A DNA stretch of 64,000 bases from Dehalococcoidia bacterium (GTDB taxonomy: Bacteria > Chloroflexota > Dehalococcoidia > UBA6926). The position numbers were made by a program, and so were the translations under genes. The stretch covers positions 6,258 through 70,257 of the forward strand of contig DAOUHQ010000007.1 of assembly GCA_034428515.1 (NCBI GenBank), in the 5' to 3' direction. A model generated the notes under the pieces. It had not been told where the DNA came from, did no database searches, and worked only from the letters and a program-made list of their open reading frames with translations. Shown piece by piece: positions 4,731-55,868 of this stretch. Position 1 is the stretch's first letter. Every line of letters begins with the position of its first letter.

Positions 4731-5948
4731 CTAGGTTTGGTCCAGTTCGATGCCCAGCGCACCGGTCACAGTCGCCAGATCCTTGTCACCCCGACCGCTC
4801 AAATTCACCAGGATGATGTCCTCACTTGATAGCGTTGCGGCCAGACGTGCCGCCTCAAAGATGGCGTGCGATGACTCCAACGCAGGGATGATTCCCTCCG
4901 TTCGGGCCAGCATCTTGAACCCCTCCAGCGCCTCCGTGTCCGTCACACTCGTGAATGTGGCGCGCCCGGTGTCCTGGTAGTAGGAAAGCTCCGGCCCCAC
5001 ACCGGGGTAGTCCAGGCCGGCGGAGATGCTGTGCGTCTCCGTCACCTGCCCCCACTCATCCTGGAGCACCTGCGAGAACGACCCGTGCAGCACACCCGGC
5101 TTGCCTGCACCGAGGCTGGCGCTGTGCTCGCCGGTATCAATGCCATGCCCCGCAGCCTCCACGCCGACCATCGCAACGTCTGAGTCGCCATAGAACGCGT
5201 GGAACAGCCCCATCGCGTTGCTTCCGCCGCCCACGCACGCCACCAGGTGCGTCGGCAGTCGTCCCTCTACGTCCAGCATCTGCTCGCGAGCCTCTTGCCC
5301 GATGACTGACTGAAAGTCGCGCACGAGAACAGGGTAAGGATGAGGCCCGACGACGCTGCCAATGACGTAATACGTGTTTGACACGTTCGTCACCCAGTCG
5401 CGCATCGCCTCGTTCACCGCGTCCTTGAGCGTTCGAGAACCGGACGTCACAGACACAACGTCCGCCCCAAGCAGACGCATTCGGAATACGTTAGGCGCCT
5501 GCCGGTGAATATCTTCTTCGCCCATATAAACGACGCATTCAAGCCCCAACAGCGCGCACACGGTAGCCGTCGCAACTCCGTGCTGCCCCGCGCCCGTCTC
5601 CGCGATGATCCGCGTCTTGCCCATGCGCTGAGCCAGCAGAACCTGGCCAAGGGCGTTGTTGATCTTGTGCGCGCCTGTATGCGCCAGATCCTCTCGCTTG
5701 AGATAGATGCGAGCGCCCCCGCTTTGCCCCGTCAGCCGCTCGGCCAGCGTTAGAGGGGTAGGGCGGCCTGCGTAGGTTCGTGAGAGATGATCCAGCCGTG
5801 AGAGGAACTCCGAATCCTCGCGGGCCGCAGCGTACGACTCCTCAAGCTCAGTGACCGCTGCCATCAGCGTCTCCGGCACGTAACGCCCGCCGAATTGCCC
5901 AAAGCGGCCCGGCGCTTCCGCGTCTGCTCCCGTCTTGACAATGGTCAT
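4731..5948 (-). CDS. trpB: tryptophan synthase beta chain
   Basis: 405 aa; PLP-lysine motif [13 protein letters not shown]; 4-nt ATGA overlap with trpF. Confidence 0.95.
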
Positions 5949-48554: not shown

Positions 48555-49910
48555 CTACAACCCCAGCACGCCAATAGAGACCGCAGCAAGCGCCAACAGC
48601 ACCCCAAATCCAACCACATCCGTCACCGTTGTGCCGAATATCCCGGCTGCCAAGGCTGGGTCAACGCCGAATCGCCGCAGGATCAGCGGAATCAGCACTC
48701 CCGCGGCCCCCGCCACAATCAAGTTAATCAACATCGCCGCACCAAGCGCCACGGACAGCCAAAGATTCTGCGACCAGACGAAAGCCGCAGCTCCCGCAAC
48801 GACGCCCAGTGTTACCCCGTGTGCCAGACCCAACACAATTTCCTTCGCGAGCACCCGGCGTGCGTTCCGCAGCGTCAGTTCACCCAATGCGATGCTTCGT
48901 ACGGCAATCGTCACCGTCTGGATGATCGCGTTGCCTCCCTGTCCGCCCACAATGGGCAGGAACGCCGCCAGAACAGCCGCCTTGGCAATGGTGGACTCGA
49001 ACATCCCTACGACGGCCGCCGCTGCGAACGCCGTGACTAAATTCACAATCAACCATGGCATCCGAAGCCGCATCGACCTGACAATGCCGGTTTGGACGGA
49101 CTCCTCAGCGTTGAGGCCAACGATCATGTACATGTCCTCGGTCGCCTCGCCCTCGGCAACATGCATCATCTCCGGAAGATCGATGAATCCCAGCAGGTGT
49201 CCGTCGTCATCCACGGTTGGCAGCGTGTCCAGCCGATACCGCTCCATGATTCGCGCGCACTCTTCCTGGTCTGTCCCGGCCGGAACGGATTTCGGATCGT
49301 GATCCATGATGCGAGACAGTGGGGTGCCGGGCGGCGCAAGCAACAGCTGTCGGAAGCTCACGCTGCCGGAGAGCTTGTTGTCGTCATCTACGACAAAAAC
49401 CCGCGATAGGCGCCGGGTTAGCGCCTCCGATGCACGGATGGACGCGTGCGCCTGAAGGACGGTCATGCGCTCACGGAGCGCGAGAAAGTCCGTTGTCACC
49501 AGCGCCCCCGCCGTCTCCTCATCCTGCGCGAGGAGGTTCCGGACGATATCTCGTTCAGCCAGCGAGTCCACTATCTCGGAGCGCAGTTCTCTGGGCATTT
49601 CGCGAAGTACGCGCGCCGCAGTCCCCAGCGGTGTCCGATTGAATATTGCGGTCAGGCTCTCACCCGGCAGCCGAGCCAGCGGTGTTAGCGCCCGCTCGCC
49701 GTGCCGCACGAGGTACTCCAGCAGGTGACTGACATCCCGCGCCGAAAGATGAGAGAGAATTTCAGCGCGGGCGTGTTCAGGAAGTTCATTGATGACTTCC
49801 GCAGCATCCGCCGGCTCTTGCTCGCGCAGCTCGACGGCAACCGCCGCCGCTTCCCCTGCCTCCACGCGGTCGGCTAGCTGTTCCGCGTCTATCGTTTCAG
49901 GCAAGGTCAT
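48555..49910 (-). CDS. mgtE: magnesium transporter
   Basis: 451 aa; MgtE N-domain, two CBS domains, C-terminal TM domain. Confidence 0.85.
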   Translation of the reverse strand: MTLPETIDAEQLADRVEAGEAAAVAVELREQEPADAAEVINELPEHARAEILSHLSARDVSHLLEYLVRHGERALTPLARLPGESLTAIFNRTPLGTAARVLREMPRELRSEIVDSLAERDIVRNLLAQDEETAGALVTTDFLALRERMTVLQAHASIRASEALTRRLSRVFVVDDDNKLSGSVSFRQLLLAPPGTPLSRIMDHDPKSVPAGTDQEECARIMERYRLDTLPTVDDDGHLLGFIDLPEMMHVAEGEATEDMYMIVGLNAEESVQTGIVRSMRLRMPWLIVNLVTAFAAAAVVGMFESTIAKAAVLAAFLPIVGGQGGNAIIQTVTIAVRSIALGELTLRNARRVLAKEIVLGLAHGVTLGVVAGAAAFVWSQNLWLSVALGAAMLINLIVAGAAGVLIPLILRRFGVDPALAAGIFGTTVTDVVGFGVLLALAAVSIGVLGL

Positions 49911-49926
49911 GGCCGATTCGCCCCCT

Positions 49927-50301
49927 CTACCGCCGTCGTGTTATCTCTACCCAGGCGCTGTCCAGCGCTCCTCTGATAGGCACGGACGGCTTGCTGACGC
50001 GGATGCGCGTCGACTCAATAGGGAGCTCGTCAAGAAGCCGCTGGGCGCACTCCTCCGCAAGGCTCTCCAACAGCGCGTGCGGCGGCCCTTCTACCACTCC
50101 CTGGACGATCTCGAATGCGCGCCCATAGTCAGCCGTGTCGGCTAGATCGTCTGAATGTCCCGCGACAGAAAGATCCATAGCCATCTCAAGATCGACGATG
50201 AATCGCTGGCCGACGGCCTGCTCTTCTTCGGTCGCGCCATGATGTCCGAAGAACACCATCCCTGAGAGACCGATAAGGTCCTGGGGCTCATAGTCGTTCA
50301 T
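49927..50301 (-). CDS. folB: dihydroneopterin aldolase
   Basis: 124 aa; FFGHHGATEEEQAVGQRFIVD motif. Confidence 0.8.
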   Translation of the reverse strand: MNDYEPQDLIGLSGMVFFGHHGATEEEQAVGQRFIVDLEMAMDLSVAGHSDDLADTADYGRAFEIVQGVVEGPPHALLESLAEECAQRLLDELPIESTRIRVSKPSVPIRGALDSAWVEITRRR

Positions 50302-50322
50302 TGGCGCTCGTCTCCTGAAACG

Positions 50323-51231
50323 CTAACGCCGTCGATAGGGTGGATACCCCGGCGGCATCGGCGGCTCGTAGTAGTCGTCATCGTCATCATCGTACTGGTA
50401 GAGCCTCGATCTATTCGTCTCATACCTGTTCGGCTGCCACACCTTTTCCCGCCTCAGGATGCGCCAACCTGCAACGATGCCGGCGCCCGCGACAAAGCCT
50501 CCTACATGTGCCCAGTAGGCCACGCCGCCCCCGCCTCCCGCCACAACCAGCCCGCCGACGCCCTGGAACAACTGGATCACCATCCACATCACAAGCAGCC
50601 ACACTGCCGGGATCTCCATCACCGTGATCAGCCCCATCATGAATAGCGTGCGGACCCGGCGGCGCGGGAACAACAACAGGTATGCGCCAAGCACGCCCGC
50701 GATTGCCCCGCTTGCTCCGATGGCCGGGATGCTGCTCTCCCAGTTGAACAGGATGTGCGTTGCGGAGGCGAGAACACCCGTCGCCAGATAGAAAACAAGA
50801 AACCCAACGCGCCCGAAATGGTGCTCGAGGTTGTCCCCGAACACCCATAGAAACACCATATTGCCCAGGATGTGCGCCCATCCCCCGTGCAGGAACATCG
50901 ATGTGAACAGCGTCATCCATGACGGGACGATGGGCGCGATTGCCGCGTATTCGGGCAGCGACATTATCTGGTCGAATACTGCGCCGTTGGTGAACTCAAA
51001 GGGCACCACGCCGAACCGGAAATGAAAGATTGCACGCTGCTCCGGGTCGAGGATGATGGTGTACAGGAACGCGAGCGCATTGATGACGATCAGCGTGATG
51101 GTCAGCCACGGCGTCCCGTGCCGCCCACCGACGTTGTCTGAAAGAGGAATCATGGCCGCACTAACCCCCTGCGGCAGCCGCGCGTCGGCGCCCGCCCCAT
51201 GTCTACAATGAAATTGTGTCCGCTCGGACAC
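50323..51231 (-). CDS. rhomboid family intramembrane serine protease
   Basis: 302 aa; HGGWAHILGNM motif; GASGAI catalytic Ser; AHxGG catalytic His. Confidence 0.8.
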   Translation of the reverse strand: MSERTQFHCRHGAGADARLPQGVSAAMIPLSDNVGGRHGTPWLTITLIVINALAFLYTIILDPEQRAIFHFRFGVVPFEFTNGAVFDQIMSLPEYAAIAPIVPSWMTLFTSMFLHGGWAHILGNMVFLWVFGDNLEHHFGRVGFLVFYLATGVLASATHILFNWESSIPAIGASGAIAGVLGAYLLLFPRRRVRTLFMMGLITVMEIPAVWLLVMWMVIQLFQGVGGLVVAGGGGGVAYWAHVGGFVAGAGIVAGWRILRREKVWQPNRYETNRSRLYQYDDDDDDYYEPPMPPGYPPYRRR

Positions 51232-51260
51232 ACGATTCTACCGATGGAAGGCATAGACAC

Positions 51261-52466
51261 ATGAGTGGACCACTTGAAGGTCTCCGAATCGTTGATTTAA
51301 CCCGCATCCTCGCGGGCCCGTTCGCAACCATGATTCTATCCGACATGGGCGCGGAGGTCATAAAGGTCGAACGCCCCGAGGGCGGCGACCTCTCTCGCGG
51401 CACAGGCCCGTTCTTCGAAGGGGAGAGCTACTACTTCGTTAGCGTCAACCGCGGCAAACAAAGCGTTTCCATCAACCTCGCGCACCCCGACGGTCAGCAG
51501 GCGCTCAAAGACATCGCTGCCGAGTGCGACGTGCTCGTGGAGAATTTCGTCCCCGGCACGATGGCCAACTTCGGCCTCTCCTACGACAATCTCCAGGCTG
51601 TGAATCCTCGTCTCGTCTATTGCTCCATCTCCGGCTTTGGCCAGACCGGCCCCTACGCCCAACGCCCCGCGCTGGACATCATCGTCCAGGCCATGGGCGG
51701 CATCATGAGCATCACGGGCGAGGCCGGCGGCGGCCCCGTCCGTCCCGGCAGTTCGCTCGGCGACATGATCGCCGGACTCTTTGCAACAACCGCCATCCTC
51801 GCTGCCGTGCAGGAACGGGAGCGCAGCGGGAAAGGGCAGTACATCGATGTCTCAATGCTCGAGTGCCAGCTCGCCATCCTTGAGGCCGCAGTTGGCAGAT
51901 ATGTATCGACGGGACACGTTCCCGGCCCAATCGGCACGCGCCACCCCTCATTCACCCCTTTCCAGGCATTCAAGGCGGCGGACGACTGGATCGTCGTGGC
52001 GATTGTCGGTGGCGTCAACGACCAGTGGCCGCTATTTTGCGCCGCCATCGACCGCGTGGACATGATCGACGATGTCCGCTACGTCGATGGCTACCACCGT
52101 ACCCTCAACTACGATGACCTACTCCCCGAATTAGAGGAGGCCTTCTTAAAGAAACCCGCCGAGCAATGGCTGCGCGAACTTGGCCGGCTGGGAATTGCGT
52201 GCGGCCCTGTCAACCGCATCGACCAGGTCCTGGCCGATCCACAGGTGCAGGAACGCGGCGCGATAGCTCATGTTCCTCACCCACGCGTCGGCAACATCCC
52301 AGTCGTCAACTCCCCCCTCCGCTTCTCCCGCACCCCCAACGGCAACCTTGGCCCCGCCCCAGACCTCGGCCAACACAACGAAACCGTCCTCCAAGGCCTG
52401 ACAGGCTACACCGCAGAGCAGGTGGAACGGCTAAGGGCAGAGGGCGTGATAGTGGCGGAGGAGTAG
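51261..52466 (+). CDS. CoA-transferase family III (CaiB/BaiF-like)
   Basis: ATG MSGPLEGLRIVDLT at 51261; family III signature. Confidence 0.8.
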   Translation: MSGPLEGLRIVDLTRILAGPFATMILSDMGAEVIKVERPEGGDLSRGTGPFFEGESYYFVSVNRGKQSVSINLAHPDGQQALKDIAAECDVLVENFVPGTMANFGLSYDNLQAVNPRLVYCSISGFGQTGPYAQRPALDIIVQAMGGIMSITGEAGGGPVRPGSSLGDMIAGLFATTAILAAVQERERSGKGQYIDVSMLECQLAILEAAVGRYVSTGHVPGPIGTRHPSFTPFQAFKAADDWIVVAIVGGVNDQWPLFCAAIDRVDMIDDVRYVDGYHRTLNYDDLLPELEEAFLKKPAEQWLRELGRLGIACGPVNRIDQVLADPQVQERGAIAHVPHPRVGNIPVVNSPLRFSRTPNGNLGPAPDLGQHNETVLQGLTGYTAEQVERLRAEGVIVAEE

Positions 52467-52541
52467 GAGGCTATAATCGTAGCCTAAATAGCGGAAGCCA
52501 ATGATGACCTCGTCGCTTGGCTAATCCTCCCCCTCAAAGGC

Positions 52542-52979
52542 TCAGCGTCTGCTGCCCCGCATTGATCCTTCTACGTAGAATTCTTCGAGATCGTAAAGCG
52601 AGCAAATGACCTCTCGATCGTCACCGTTTTCCCATGAATCTCGGGAGGGATAAAAAGTACTGATATCTAGGAGGGAGTCGTAGTAGGAAAGCCCCACGAA
52701 TTGGTCGAATTCCTCTAGGCATAGGTTCGAAGCCGCATCGCTAACAAGAGTACGGCCGGGGAACGGCACTCCCGGGGCCTCTTCGAATGAAAGAACGGCG
52801 TAGACCTCGTACTGATGCGGTTCATCGCACGGCACGAGGTCTACATCAGCAACATCTTCCGACTCGTCCTCGTTGTAGTTGTAGCAATCCCCTTCCGCTA
52901 AGTCGAATACATTCCCCTCTGAGAGACATCCTGCTGCAAGAGCTGTAACCAGACCTAAAAGTACAACTGCTTTCAACAT
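52542..52979 (-). CDS. hypothetical lipoprotein (low-GC cargo 1)
   Basis: 145 aa; lipobox LAAGC; Asp/Glu-rich; local GC clearly lower. Confidence 0.5.
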   Translation of the reverse strand: MLKAVVLLGLVTALAAGCLSEGNVFDLAEGDCYNYNEDESEDVADVDLVPCDEPHQYEVYAVLSFEEAPGVPFPGRTLVSDAASNLCLEEFDQFVGLSYYDSLLDISTFYPSRDSWENGDDREVICSLYDLEEFYVEGSMRGSRR

Positions 52980-53004
52980 TGTCTGACCTCCTTGGGGCTC
53001 CCTG

Positions 53005-53095
53005 CGCGTCCCAAGGAGGACTCGAGCTCAGAACCTGCGGATTAGAAGTTTGCTGCTTTGTCCGGTTGAGCTACTAGGATAGGGACGCTGACACG
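53005..53095 (-). pseudogene. degenerate tRNA-Arg-like copy (pseudo-tRNA)
   Basis: Minus strand GCGTCCCTatccTAGTAGCTCAACCGGACAaAGCAGCaaACTTCTAATCCGCAGGTTctgaGcTCGAGTCCtcc aligns to the intact tRNA at 54433..54509 but has broken anticodon and T stems. Confidence 0.45.
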
Positions 53096-53137
53096 GTTAC
53101 CATGACGTTATCGACATAATATGTCAAGAAACCTCAA

Positions 53138-53312
53138 CCCCATCCCCGTTGTCAACTCCCCCCTCCGCTTCTCCCGCACCCCCAACGGCCCTCTCGGAGA
53201 AGCCCCGGACCTAGGCCAACACAACGAAACCGTCCTCCAAGGCCTAACTGGCTACACGAAAGAGCACGTGGAACGGCTAAGGTCTGAGGGAGTAATAGTA
53301 GCGGAGGAGTGA
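53138..53312 (+). pseudogene. duplicated 3' fragment of the CoA-transferase gene
   Basis: Encodes IPVVNSPLRFSRTPNGPLGEAPDLGQHNETVLQGLTGYTKEHVERLRSEGVIVAEE, ~85-90% nt identical to 52290..52466. Confidence 0.55.
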
Positions 53313-53314
53313 CC

Positions 53315-54379
53315 CTACCTGGTGTTCGCTATTTGGTAAGCCTCACGAAGTGCCGCAAAAAGCTCCTCAGAAAATGGCGCGCCGACCCAAGCGGATTGGC
53401 CGGTAGCTGCTTCCTTCCCGACCGCAGACCAGACGCGCTCAATAGAAGCGGACGCATAGAGATTGAAAGTGCTTCTCTTCACACCGACAAACGGTTTCCC
53501 CCCGGATTCACAACTGAAGTAGGCAAGATGGCCACGGCCCCCCGGCAACAATAGCCTGACCGCTCCTCCACCTCTCAGATAAGAGACACTGATAGGCTCT
53601 CCAAGCCCTGCTGCTCCAATCTCTTTGATGAACTCTAAAACACCATCGAATCGCTCTTGTTGCTCGAGTGGCAACGCCTCGATTAACTCTTCGAATTCTG
53701 ATGTGCCCGGCACACTATTCTGAGATGTCAGAAGTGTGCCCGCCCGCGCCGCCTGCTCTCTATCCCGTGCCATTACCAGATAATCCTGCGCCTCTGGCAG
53801 AGGAATCACTTGGTCAATATCCAGCAAGAGACTGCCCTCATGCCGGTATGAACGTACGCGAACACACCTAATGTCCAGCCCCATCTCATTCAGCCACAAG
53901 ACAGACGTCGTAATCTCCTTGTTGAAATCCTCGGATACAAGGACAATTCTCGGACGCTCAGTCGCTATGGATATCTCCTCATTCACGCCAAGACCAAGAT
54001 GGTCTCGAATCCGTTCCTCAGCAAATCCCTCGATACTCTTATCTCGAAGGTAGCGTGCATGGCCCTCAATGATGCTCTGTGTTGAGAAATTCGCCATCAT
54101 CGCGGCGTAGCGAATTGCTTGCAACTCCATGTGTACGCCGTCACCACGCTTCAACTCAACGACGACTAGCTTGCCGTCGACATCGATGCAGAGAAGGTCG
54201 ATATACCGCCAGGCGTCTTGCCAATCTGTGAACTCGTCGGCGATGACGAACAATCCATCCTCAATGAATTCAGGATGCTCACGCAAAGCCTCTTGCAGAT
54301 CAGCCTCAGCGATGCGTTCTTCGTGGAATGACGTCCTGTCAATCCCAGTCAGACTCTTATCGTTCATCTCGTAGAGCAT
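53315..54379 (-). CDS. NucS/DUF91-like PD-(D/E)xK nuclease-domain protein (low-GC cargo 2)
   Basis: 354 aa; HPEFIEDGLFVIADEF...WRYIDLLCIDVDGKLVVVELKRG motif; lower GC than flanks. Confidence 0.55.
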   Translation of the reverse strand: MLYEMNDKSLTGIDRTSFHEERIAEADLQEALREHPEFIEDGLFVIADEFTDWQDAWRYIDLLCIDVDGKLVVVELKRGDGVHMELQAIRYAAMMANFSTQSIIEGHARYLRDKSIEGFAEERIRDHLGLGVNEEISIATERPRIVLVSEDFNKEITTSVLWLNEMGLDIRCVRVRSYRHEGSLLLDIDQVIPLPEAQDYLVMARDREQAARAGTLLTSQNSVPGTSEFEELIEALPLEQQERFDGVLEFIKEIGAAGLGEPISVSYLRGGGAVRLLLPGGRGHLAYFSCESGGKPFVGVKRSTFNLYASASIERVWSAVGKEAATGQSAWVGAPFSEELFAALREAYQIANTR

Positions 54380-54432
54380 TCTTTCCCACCAAGCGACTAG
54401 ATGTGTTTAGTTCTAACCACGCCCCCAAATGA

Positions 54433-54509
54433 TGGCGTCCCCGGTGGGACTCGAACCCACAACCTGCGGATTAGAAGTCCGCTGCTCTGTCCGGTTGAGC
54501 TACAGGGAC
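54433..54509 (-). tRNA. tRNA-Arg (anticodon TCT)
   Basis: 77 nt GTCCCTG-TA-GCTC-AACCGGACA-GAGC-A-GCGGA-CTTCTAA-TCCGC-AGGTT-GTGGG-TTCGAGT-CCCAC-CGGGGAC-G-CCA; all stems pair; CCA encoded. Confidence 0.9.
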
Positions 54510-54610
54510 GCGCTTGGGTCGCGGCATCCCATCCATGATAGCGCCGCAACTCCATAGGCGAGTCTACGTCCGTTACGCAGCCTGGTGTTGAACAGGTGAG
54601 CCCAACGGTC

Positions 54611-55201
54611 TTAGGAGACGGGTCGGTCAGACGCGACAGACCCGTTCTGCGGGGGCGGGGTGTCCACCACGTCCGGTAGCCAGGTATAGACACGGTGCAG
54701 GGGGCGATAAGCCCCGCTCACCTGTGACACGCTCTTGATCTCAAGCCCGCCGATGTCGGCTTTCGTTGTCCACTTGCGCTGCACGTACGCGCCCGCTCTG
54801 AACGAGCCGATGAGCGCCAGCGCGGAAAGCCCCATCGCCTGCGGCAGCCGCCCGACACGGTTGCGTGTGCCGAGGATCATCCCGGTCAGCAGGGCAGTCG
54901 TCATGCCGCCCAGCAGGAAATTCGTGCCGCAGAATGGCGAAATGGCCAAGTGGGATTCCCCAGCCCGCAGCCGCTCCACAGCCTCTTGTGCGGCGTCCTC
55001 TATGCGTTGCGCCGTCGTTGGCCCATAGACGAAGAATCCGTCCTGTTTCGCGCTGCCCCCAAGTCGACCAAACTGGTCATGCTTGCGACCAAGCACGGCG
55101 ATCGTCGCGTGTTCAATCGCGTGATTCTGCCGGATGCGGTCAATGAGCTCAATGATATCCATCACACATTCGAGTATGGGAACCGCGCCAAACAGGGTCA
55201 A
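54611..55201 (-). CDS. hypothetical protein
   Basis: 196 aa; conserved-looking NHAIEHATIA segment; no family assignable. Confidence 0.4.
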   Translation of the reverse strand: MTLFGAVPILECVMDIIELIDRIRQNHAIEHATIAVLGRKHDQFGRLGGSAKQDGFFVYGPTTAQRIEDAAQEAVERLRAGESHLAISPFCGTNFLLGGMTTALLTGMILGTRNRVGRLPQAMGLSALALIGSFRAGAYVQRKWTTKADIGGLEIKSVSQVSGAYRPLHRVYTWLPDVVDTPPPQNGSVASDRPVS

Positions 55202-55253
55202 GGCAGAAGAAAAATCCTCGCCACCGCGCCCCCAAGTCGTCTATGCTTTTTAC

Positions 55254-55868
55254 ATGTCCAACGGTGCCACAGGATTGAGCCGTCGCAACGGGCTTGCGGG
55301 CCCCGCCGCCAAGGGCGTCGACCGCGTCCTCATCAGCAAGACGCGCCTCCAGCGTCGCGTGAAAGAACTGGCCGCGCAGCTGAGCGTCGAGTATGCCAAC
55401 GGCGAGGTGGTCTGTGTTGGTGCGCTGAATGGCGTCATCTGTTTTCTCGCGGACCTCGTGCGTGAAATGGACATCCCCGCTCCGGTGGAACTTGTTCACG
55501 TTGACCGATTCATTGATGAAGACGGCCACACCGTAGAGATGCCCAACCCATTCCGGGAGAGCCTGCGTGGCCGTGATGTCCTCATCGTGGAGGACATCGT
55601 TGATACCGGTGTCACGCTCAAACTTCTGGAAGAGAAGGTTCTCGCGGAGAAACCTGCCTCGCTCAAGGTCTGCACGCTGTTGGACAAACCCGCGCACCGG
55701 ATAGTTGAGGTTCAGGTCGACTACGTCGGGTTCTCGATAGATCCGGTCTTCGTCGTTGGCTATGGCCTCGACTACGAGGGTTTCTATCGAAACCTGCCGT
55801 TCGTAGGTGTTGTGGACAGCGCGGTTTGGCCACCCGCGCTACTCGAGCGCCCCAAGTTCGACACCTAA
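55254..55868 (+). CDS. hpt: hypoxanthine phosphoribosyltransferase
   Basis: ATG at 55254; PRPP-binding motif VLIVEDIVDTGVT. Confidence 0.85.
   Translation: MSNGATGLSRRNGLAGPAAKGVDRVLISKTRLQRRVKELAAQLSVEYANGEVVCVGALNGVICFLADLVREMDIPAPVELVHVDRFIDEDGHTVEMPNPFRESLRGRDVLIVEDIVDTGVTLKLLEEKVLAEKPASLKVCTLLDKPAHRIVEVQVDYVGFSIDPVFVVGYGLDYEGFYRNLPFVGVVDSAVWPPALLERPKFDT

Follow-up and report, generated by a model that had tools for sequence, protein, structure and literature searches.

A doubled accessory-gene slot between a CoA-transferase gene and tRNA-Arg(TCT) in sponge-associated Chloroflexota

We analysed a 64,000-nucleotide (nt) stretch of a Dehalococcoidia bacterium genome (contig DAOUHQ010000007.1 of assembly GCA_034428515.1; hereafter the window, to which coordinates refer unless a contig is named), focusing on the gene slot between a family III CoA-transferase gene (CoAT) and the gene for tRNA-Arg(TCT). 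In this slot, the order CoAT end, cargo gene and tRNA occurs twice, head-to-tail, with 53096–53140 as the sole junction. The doubling has a single origin and a patchy distribution among related genomes, the two copies of the CoAT end evolve in concert, the cargo turns over between lineages, and integrase genes are absent from the gene and Pfam lists of the loci compared. The slot is probably an integrase-free hotspot that carries an old tandem (Campbell-type) duplication and has been shaped by homologous recombination of its repeat arms and of the flanking core genes.

Anatomy of the doubled locus

An earlier note on this DNA had described a doubled unit of CoAT 3′ end, cargo and tRNA, and every feature of that layout was recovered where it had been placed. 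The features are as follows.

51261–52466, + strand: family III CoA-transferase gene (CoAT); Pfam PF02515, E 5e-127
52295–52466, + strand: e1, the working CoAT 3′ end and a repeat arm; direct repeat D1
52467–52541 (75 nt): spacer between CoAT and the lipoprotein gene, from the sequence
52469–52484: hairpin GGCTA-TAATCG-TAGCC, found by reading the sequence
52542–52979, − strand: slot 1 cargo, gene for a probable lipoprotein of 145 amino acids (aa); Pfam PF13845 (Septum_form), E 3e-12
53006–53095, − strand: psi1, a decayed full-length copy of tRNA-Arg(TCT); direct repeat D2, 84% identity
53096–53140 (45 nt): junction (filler) between the units, matching neither flank
53141–53312, + strand: e2, a displaced copy of the CoAT 3′ end; direct repeat D1; open 63-aa frame from 53121
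53315–54379, − strand: slot 2 cargo, gene for a 354-aa PD-(D/E)xK nuclease-like protein; PADLOC PDC-S11, E 5e-84
54433–54509, − strand: intact tRNA-Arg(TCT), the right flank; ARAGORN; Rfam, 71 bits

Both e1 and e2 represent the last 172 nt of CoAT, and they align without gaps at 85–86% identity. As direct repeats, 52295–52464 pairs with 53141–53310 (170 nt, 86% identical, 846 nt spacing) and, for the tRNA copies, 53006–53079 pairs with 54435–54508 (74 nt, 84% identical). Within each repeat, 25–26-mers have been kept that occur exactly twice in the window and not once in 100 shuffles. The DNA of e1 and e2 was 85.4% identical and the encoded peptides agreed at 51 of 56 residues (91%), a value above the ~85% previously given for the peptide; similarly, homology of the second copy is demonstrable from 53141, and not from 53138 as first proposed. 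The junction did not align significantly with the 5′ flank of the tRNA or with the part of CoAT that precedes e1. Two candidate extensions, of e2 upstream of 53141 and of the psi1 copy into the tRNA promoter region, were dropped, as their local alignments were not significant against shuffles.

The internal copies in the repeated units have decayed. ARAGORN and Rfam detected only the tRNA-Arg(TCT) gene at 54433–54509, whose sequence is identical in the related loci L001, L094 and L095, and psi1 gave no match with either program even at E ≤ 1. Compared with the intact tRNA, psi1 carries 12 substitutions in 74 nt, eight of them GC to AT, a 6-nt insertion near the 5′ end, and broken T and anticodon stems, and its CCA end has changed to CGC. 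It is nevertheless a complete copy from the 5′ to the 3′ end, and not a 3′ fragment. The second CoAT end, e2, persists only as the 172-nt fragment, and its frame is broken by a frameshift in the related locus L087.

The 3′ ends of CoAT and tRNA-Arg(TCT) are convergent and bound the slot. Both cargo genes lie directly downstream of the tRNA or pseudo-tRNA and are codirectional with it; this gene order suggests that the cargo may be read through from the tRNA or pseudo-tRNA. A promoter and terminator scan of 52300–54750 found nothing. In agreement with the low-GC cargo described in the earlier note, the cargo genes have a GC content of 51–53% (52–57% at third codon positions, GC3), compared with 61–62.5% (GC3 72–77%) in neighbouring genes, and the lowest-GC bins of the entire window are those at 52–54 kb. 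The absence of an integrase from the unit, also claimed there, was borne out by the gene list and by a Pfam scan of the window genes.

The hairpin at 52469–52484 lies just past the CoAT stop codon and may act as a shared terminator for the convergent genes. At the matching position, related loci of the L083 clade (L083–L087) carry GGGGTA-CAATTA-TACCCC, in which one pair is changed on both sides and the pairing is kept. The hairpin of the window was not called in the terminator scan.

The window is of metagenomic origin, and a metagenome assembler could in principle have joined two strain alleles, CoAT–lipoprotein–tRNA and CoAT–nuclease–tRNA; this repeat is evidently hard for assemblers, as one short-read contig (L082) stops inside e2 at 53216. 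We regard this artefact as hardly credible. Long-read contigs of other samples show the same doubled order, including a 2.4-Mb contig at 26x coverage, and a contig of the Joint Genome Institute (JGI) from the metagenome of the sponge Petrosia ficiformis (L081) is 100% identical to the window across the entire doubled structure. Moreover, the internal tRNA is decayed and the junction is unique sequence that is conserved between lineages.

Related loci and the origin of the doubling

The comparison set comprised 13 related loci in eight sampled lineages, including that of the window, which share the neighbourhood rhomboid, FolB, CoAT ... tRNA-Arg, DUF6391, glyoxalase and valyl-tRNA synthetase (ValRS). 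CoAT was syntenic in 13 of 13 loci; at the 90% level, its cluster has 38 members. Ranked by CoAT identity to the window outside the repeat, the relatives are as follows.

L094: CoAT ~91.5% (flanks ~95%); single unit of nuclease, higBA and tRNA
L001: CoAT ~91.5%; empty, 26 bp from stop codon to tRNA
L095 and L101–L105: CoAT ~85.5%; single unit of nuclease and tRNA
L083–L087: CoAT ~82% (flanks 72–80%); doubled, with lipoprotein gene, psi1, junction and e2, then slot 2 cargo, which is a nuclease gene (L084, L087) or a DUF5677 gene (L083, L085, L086), followed by an 18-nt or 61-nt tRNA 3′-end copy, a 180-aa two-transmembrane (two-TM) gene and the tRNA
L093: CoAT ~76%; single unit of nuclease, higBA and tRNA

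The same gap between CoAT and tRNA, 26 bp long when empty, is thus seen empty, singly filled or doubly filled, and at least six states were distinguished among the 13 loci. The cargo has a GC content of 50–56% in every lineage, compared with 60–65% in the flanks, most cargo genes are codirectional with the tRNA, and the variable cargo adjoins the tRNA. The earlier note had named an ancestral, conserved doubling with native-GC cargo as the pattern that would contradict it; in the relatives, the cargo is of low GC everywhere and the closest relatives are undoubled. No integrase or transposase appeared in the gene or Pfam lists of any of the 13 loci, in 6–10 kb around each.

L083–L087 are collinear with positions 48555–53312 of the window in one alignment of 77% identity. 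In both the window and this clade, psi1 ends in CGC and is followed by the same ribosome-binding site and the lipoprotein gene. The junctions of the window and L084 are homologous, with an observed score that was reached by 2 of 1000 shuffles. Between the window and L084, identity was 68% for psi1, ~60% for the junction and 63% for intergenic DNA. Since psi1 and the junction have diverged like intergenic DNA, the doubled skeleton appears to be as old as the split of these genomes, and the doubling is evidently old and of single origin. The doubling is old but absent from four lineages closer to the window, indicating that it was either lost three to four times or moved between lineages.

Two further observations were set aside. 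The TAG or TGA stop codon proved unreliable for telling e1-type from e2-type CoAT ends, L101 having an e1-type motif with TGA, and a resemblance of the 26-bp spacer of L001 to the outer ends of cargo modules elsewhere, seen by eye and too short to test, was not relied on.

The tRNA 3′-end copies in the L083 clade bear on a different origin of the locus. The 180-aa module is bracketed there by the tRNA and by a copy of the tRNA 3′ end, which is perfect and 18 nt long in L084 and L087 and 61 nt long in L083, L085 and L086; this bracketing of the attL/attR type (att, attachment site) is absent from the window and was found only in relatives, at this module. Such an arrangement would be expected from serial site-specific integration at the tRNA-Arg 3′ end, by a tyrosine integrase encoded on elements that have since decayed or elsewhere in the genome. 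Each insertion would displace the older cargo from the tRNA and leave an att scar, of which psi1 would be one. Comparable scars are known from tycheposon arrays and from the accretion of integrative and conjugative elements and cis-mobilizable elements (ICE/CIME). The prevailing codirectionality of cargo and tRNA and the position of variable cargo beside the tRNA fit this view, and repeated-integration arrays of partial tRNAs are known from Prochlorococcus islands (10.1101/2020.12.28.424599). The loci described here resemble those tycheposons in being a hotspot at a tRNA 3′ end, in their stacked modules with the variable ones nearest the tRNA, and in the 18-nt and 61-nt copies between modules in relatives. 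They differ in having no integrase in any of the 13 loci, in that the extra tRNA of the window is full-length, and in the duplication of the adjacent protein gene's 3′ end, a product not expected of att-site recombination. Serial integration also leaves unexplained the second CoAT 3′ end on the 5′ side of psi1 and the nuclease gene, which lies 2 nt from e2 with no tRNA fragment between them, and a single att core predicts one fragment length, not copies of 18 and 61 nt beside the same 180-aa module. That the tRNA copy is complete, that a CoAT end lies 5′ of it and that no tRNA fragment separates the nuclease gene from e2 together argue against a pure att-site origin, and we consider serial integration an unlikely account of the locus.

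Signs of recombination in the repeat arms and the flanking gene

To compare the arms between genomes, we examined quartets of 153 nt consisting of e1 and e2 of the window and e1 and e2 of each genome of the L083 clade. In these quartets, 12–14 sites paired e1 with e2 within the same genome, one site paired the orthologous copies, and no site showed the crossed pattern. Taken together with the shared junction, this result indicates that e1 and e2 have been homogenised within each genome. Moreover, e1 and e2 differ at 23 coding sites, of which 16 are third codon positions (P = 4e-4), a bias which argues that the e2 fragment has not simply decayed.

The e2 arm of the window is closer than e1 to the working CoAT ends of relatives (90.7% identity with L094; 96.6% with L001 over the first 117 nt). 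The close relatives P0151, P0152 and P0157 carry the e2-type end NGPLGEAP, and P0157 also has EHVERLR in common with e2. The e1 arm of the window is chimeric, its NG|NLGPAPDLGQ including the motif of lineages at a greater distance; from ~52344 onwards, an LGPAPDLG-type allele and a TAG stop set it apart from the closest relatives. At 52344–52355, 8 of 12 consecutive bases differ from e2, L001 and L094, changing GPLGEAP to GNLGPAP, and the remaining 5′ part of e1 is nearly identical to e2, L001 and L094. This block looks like a recombination breakpoint within CoAT.

Identity between the window and L094 falls inside e1 from 96–98% to 84%, and along CoAT it forms a mosaic of 83–100%, compared with 90–98% on either side of the locus. 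The distribution of the derived motif NGPL(G/K)EAP conflicts with the CoAT tree. Under this sparse sampling, recombination of the flanking gene may be reflected in the CoAT mosaic, in similarities of the e region at odds with the rest of CoAT and in the quartet counts. The close relatives may have descended from a doubled ancestor and lost unit 1 through an e1–e2 crossover that left an e2-type end; the window may instead have received the stretch between ~52344 and the junction as an import, through crossovers within CoAT and the e region. Under either reading, the arms would be substrates of homologous recombination.

These patterns also bear on the idea that the locus is a frozen accident, in which one ancient in-place tandem duplication was inherited vertically and lost several times with no exchange between genomes, the repeats having no role and the arms being alike through slow evolution of a conserved coding sequence. 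The shared junction, the divergence of the skeleton at about the rate of intergenic DNA between the window and L084, and the ease with which deletions between 170-nt direct repeats recur are all compatible with it. However, conservation alone cannot give 12–14 lineage-specific e1/e2 states against one orthologous site. At the nuclease gene, divergence between 95%-identical relatives far exceeds that of their genomes, and neither the spread of the derived NGPL(G/K)EAP motif against the CoAT tree nor the identity mosaic of CoAT beside the slot fits purely vertical descent. We therefore hold this explanation to be quite improbable.

In the hotspot explanation that we favour, the gap between CoAT and tRNA-Arg(TCT) would be an integrase-free site for small accessory genes in a sponge-associated clade of Chloroflexota. 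An old duplicative event would have placed two versions of the locus head to tail, by tandem duplication or by Campbell-type crossover of a circularised copy, yielding duplicates of the CoAT 3′ end (e2) and of the whole tRNA (now psi1), and hence two cargo slots. Gene conversion within the genome would keep e1 and e2 similar, a crossover between them would cleanly delete unit 1 and restore a working CoAT with an e2-type end, and double crossovers with DNA of relatives would move the doubled allele and swap the cargo of slot 2. Slot 1 holds a lipoprotein gene from a multi-copy family, and slot 2 a fast-evolving PD-(D/E)xK nuclease. The doubled allele was probably spread by homologous recombination. 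The duplicative mechanism and the direction of the recombination events are what we infer here; tandem duplication and Campbell-type crossover give the same product and are indistinguishable with the present data.

Of the two scenarios in the earlier note, ancient tandem duplication followed by cargo replacement agrees with the old, single doubling and with the replacement in slot 2, but slot 1 is constant, and a foreign allele may instead have been inserted. Insertion by means of the CoAT end and tRNA as homology arms accords with the concerted evolution, mosaic alleles and patchiness, but the 18-nt and 61-nt tRNA repeats allow another route. The two scenarios are not really alternatives, and each is supported in part.

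Several points weigh against the hotspot explanation. The recombination is read entirely from a repeat of ~150–170 nt in eight lineages. The single-unit CoAT–lipoprotein–tRNA allele that should precede the duplication under the Campbell model was not found: five look-ups of lipoprotein homologues returned only unrelated contexts with insertion sequences (IS) or transposases. Vertical inheritance requires three to four independent losses, and horizontal spread, the alternative, has no sampled donor. The 18-nt and 61-nt tRNA 3′ copies in relatives have the form of a classic site-specific integration scar, so that cargo may be supplied, in part or entirely, by a trans-acting integrase. The lipoprotein open reading frame (ORF) is 87% identical between the window and L084, compared with 68–75% in the flanks, and its third codon positions are 79% identical, compared with 43–63% in core genes; this low divergence has to be accounted for separately, by recent replacement or by constrained synonymous sites. 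Finally, the defence role of the nuclease is a putative one, proposed from its match to a PADLOC candidate family.

A stronger version, in which the arms form a self-propagating, integrase-free cassette system with portable homology arms, appears very doubtful to us. RecA-dependent crossing over of e1 with e2, or of psi1 with the tRNA, would free a circle with one arm and its cargo, 846 bp in the case of the lipoprotein unit, and the circle or a linear doubled allele would re-insert by homology into the CoAT end of any relative. If true, such cycles would keep the arms alike and explain the patchy distribution, and the system would amount to a natural gene-targeting vector.

Single-crossover integration of the Campbell type is a textbook mechanism, as is tandem segmental duplication followed by gene conversion. 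The locus shares with their products the head-to-tail order of arm, insert and arm, the one novel junction, the decay of redundant internal copies and the homogenised arms, and recombination between the arms would give clean loss. It differs in that the two units hold unrelated cargo, pointing to different partner alleles or later replacement. Integrase-free hotspots have been described in which gene turnover accompanies homologous recombination in flanking core genes (Oliveira et al. 2017, PMC5635113). Like these and the core defence hotspots (PMC10250203), the present locus has variable content between the same core features in relatives, low-GC cargo of defence-like or toxin–antitoxin type, no integrase or transposase, and mosaic identity along the flanking core gene. 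Unlike them, the slot is very small, with one to three genes, a tRNA forms one of its flanks, and both flanks are duplicated, giving two slots whose internal arms evolve in concert. We regard the locus as a clear if ordinary case of a known class, the tRNA-adjacent, recombination-driven hotspot for accessory and defence genes, which calls for no new mechanism; what sets it apart is the duplication of both flanks and their concerted evolution. It offers a compact example of the turnover of accessory and candidate defence genes in uncultured sponge symbionts with no visible mobile-element machinery. The duplicated flanks record recombination in the form of concerted evolution, chimeric gene ends and clean deletions, and the locus is usable as a marker of strain-level structural variation in these Chloroflexota.

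Cargo genes and other variable sites

The slot 1 protein combines a Septum_form domain (PF13845) with a signal peptide that ends in Cys (LAAGC), and its gene has a GC content of 51.1% (GC3 52%). The same lipoprotein gene occupies slot 1 in every doubled genome. Homologues that are 63–78% identical occur in several copies per genome in other metagenomic genomes, with IS3-type and DDE transposases, TM2-domain genes or PLD/helicase genes as neighbours and neither CoAT nor the tRNA nearby. The DNA common to the lipoprotein copies is limited to 52505–53007, that is, the ORF with 28 nt upstream and 37 nt downstream, and its upstream limit coincides with the 3′ end of psi1. The alignment of these copies thus gave sharp limits but no terminal repeats and, judged by eye, none of the attC-like sites that would be expected at cassette ends of an integron array or of an attC cluster lacking an integrase (CALIN), and a metagenome scan with lipoprotein peptides gave no confirmed loci.

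In the metagenome of sample ERZ25071132 (L088 and L096–L100), the lipoprotein gene belongs to a repeat of at least ~800 bp with six or more copies; a TM2-domain gene lies upstream of every copy, and IS elements are often close by. In L092, whose lipoprotein homologue has unrelated surroundings, a reverse-strand fragment at 5840–5880, ~150 nt upstream of that gene, looks like the 3′ end of a different tRNA (TGGTGGAGCATCGGGGAATCGAACC). This fragment suggests that the L092 region may also be an island with an att remnant.

The slot 2 protein was matched by five PADLOC PDC-S11 models (E 5e-84 to 1e-28) over residues 2–221, covering ~60% of the profile, and the best of these matches (E 5e-84) spans residues 2–215. 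The nuclease allele of L084 gave PDC-S11 matches likewise. The earlier note had called the protein NucS-like, and this holds for its core: Pfam NucS_C (PF01939) covers residues 25–102 only (~75 residues aligned), and the PD-(D/E)xK core (IDLLCID...VVVELKRG), with the motif D61/E75/K77, aligns with the C-terminal domain of NucS. A NucS/EndoMS protein should score above the curated equivalog cut-off over its full length and have its DNA-binding domain at the N-terminus and its nuclease domain at the C-terminus; by this criterion, we rejected NucS orthology. The NCBIfam scores were 33 and 30 bits against equivalog cut-offs of 216 and 252; in the slot 2 protein, the nuclease core lies at the N-terminus, and the C-terminal third is lineage-variable. 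A confident AlphaFold model (predicted local distance difference test score, pLDDT, 84) had no significant match in the PDB.

The resemblance to PDC-S11, which PADLOC lists as a candidate single-gene defence system, lies in the N-terminal 215 residues, and these residues were also matched on 349 plasmid records. In the readable literature, PDC-S11 is a prediction in the papers that name it, and no experimental test was found. The slot 2 nuclease is, on these matches, a candidate anti-phage gene, and this fast-evolving PDC-S11-like PD-(D/E)xK family, common on plasmids, is a suitable target for functional tests. Between the window and L094, the nuclease is 78% identical in protein and 59% identical at third codon positions, compared with 77–88% at third positions in core genes, indicating that the slot 2 alleles are much older than the genome divergence or were imported. 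DNA similarity between the nuclease genes of the window and L084 or L093 is limited to the N-terminal two thirds (53742–54450), and the C-terminal domain (residues ~225–354; C-terminal third, 53315–53741) is much more lineage-variable. In plasmid homologues, the C-terminal domain is swapped for other domains, one record being annotated DUF4268.

Across lineages, slot 2 holds the nuclease gene, DUF5677, higBA with the nuclease gene, a two-TM gene or nothing. In L094 (7319–7938) and L093 (7324–7983), whose flanking DNA is ~95% and ~70% identical to the window, respectively, the space from tRNA-Arg to the nuclease gene is taken up by a higB toxin gene (PF05015, E 2e-15), which the source gene caller had missed, and an HTH_3 antitoxin gene. 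The 180-aa protein encoded directly after the tRNA in L084 (11326–12093) and L083 (11205–12031) has two predicted TM helices and a weak match to SLATT_4 (E 5e-4, below the cut-off).

Variation was also noted outside the slot. A second variable spot lies beyond DUF6391 (L084, 12800–14150; L086, 3600–5500; L101, 4600–5160; L102, 3127–4358) and contains a ParE-like toxin gene, an 83-aa gene and genes of 204–320 aa. In some relatives, this spot lacks the phosphoribosyltransferase gene of the window (55134–55868) or has it replaced. The mgtE-like magnesium transporter gene (window 48555–49910), 2.4 kb from the slot, is polymorphic in presence although it looks like a core gene, being absent from L094 and L095 and present in L001, L083–L087, L093 and L101.

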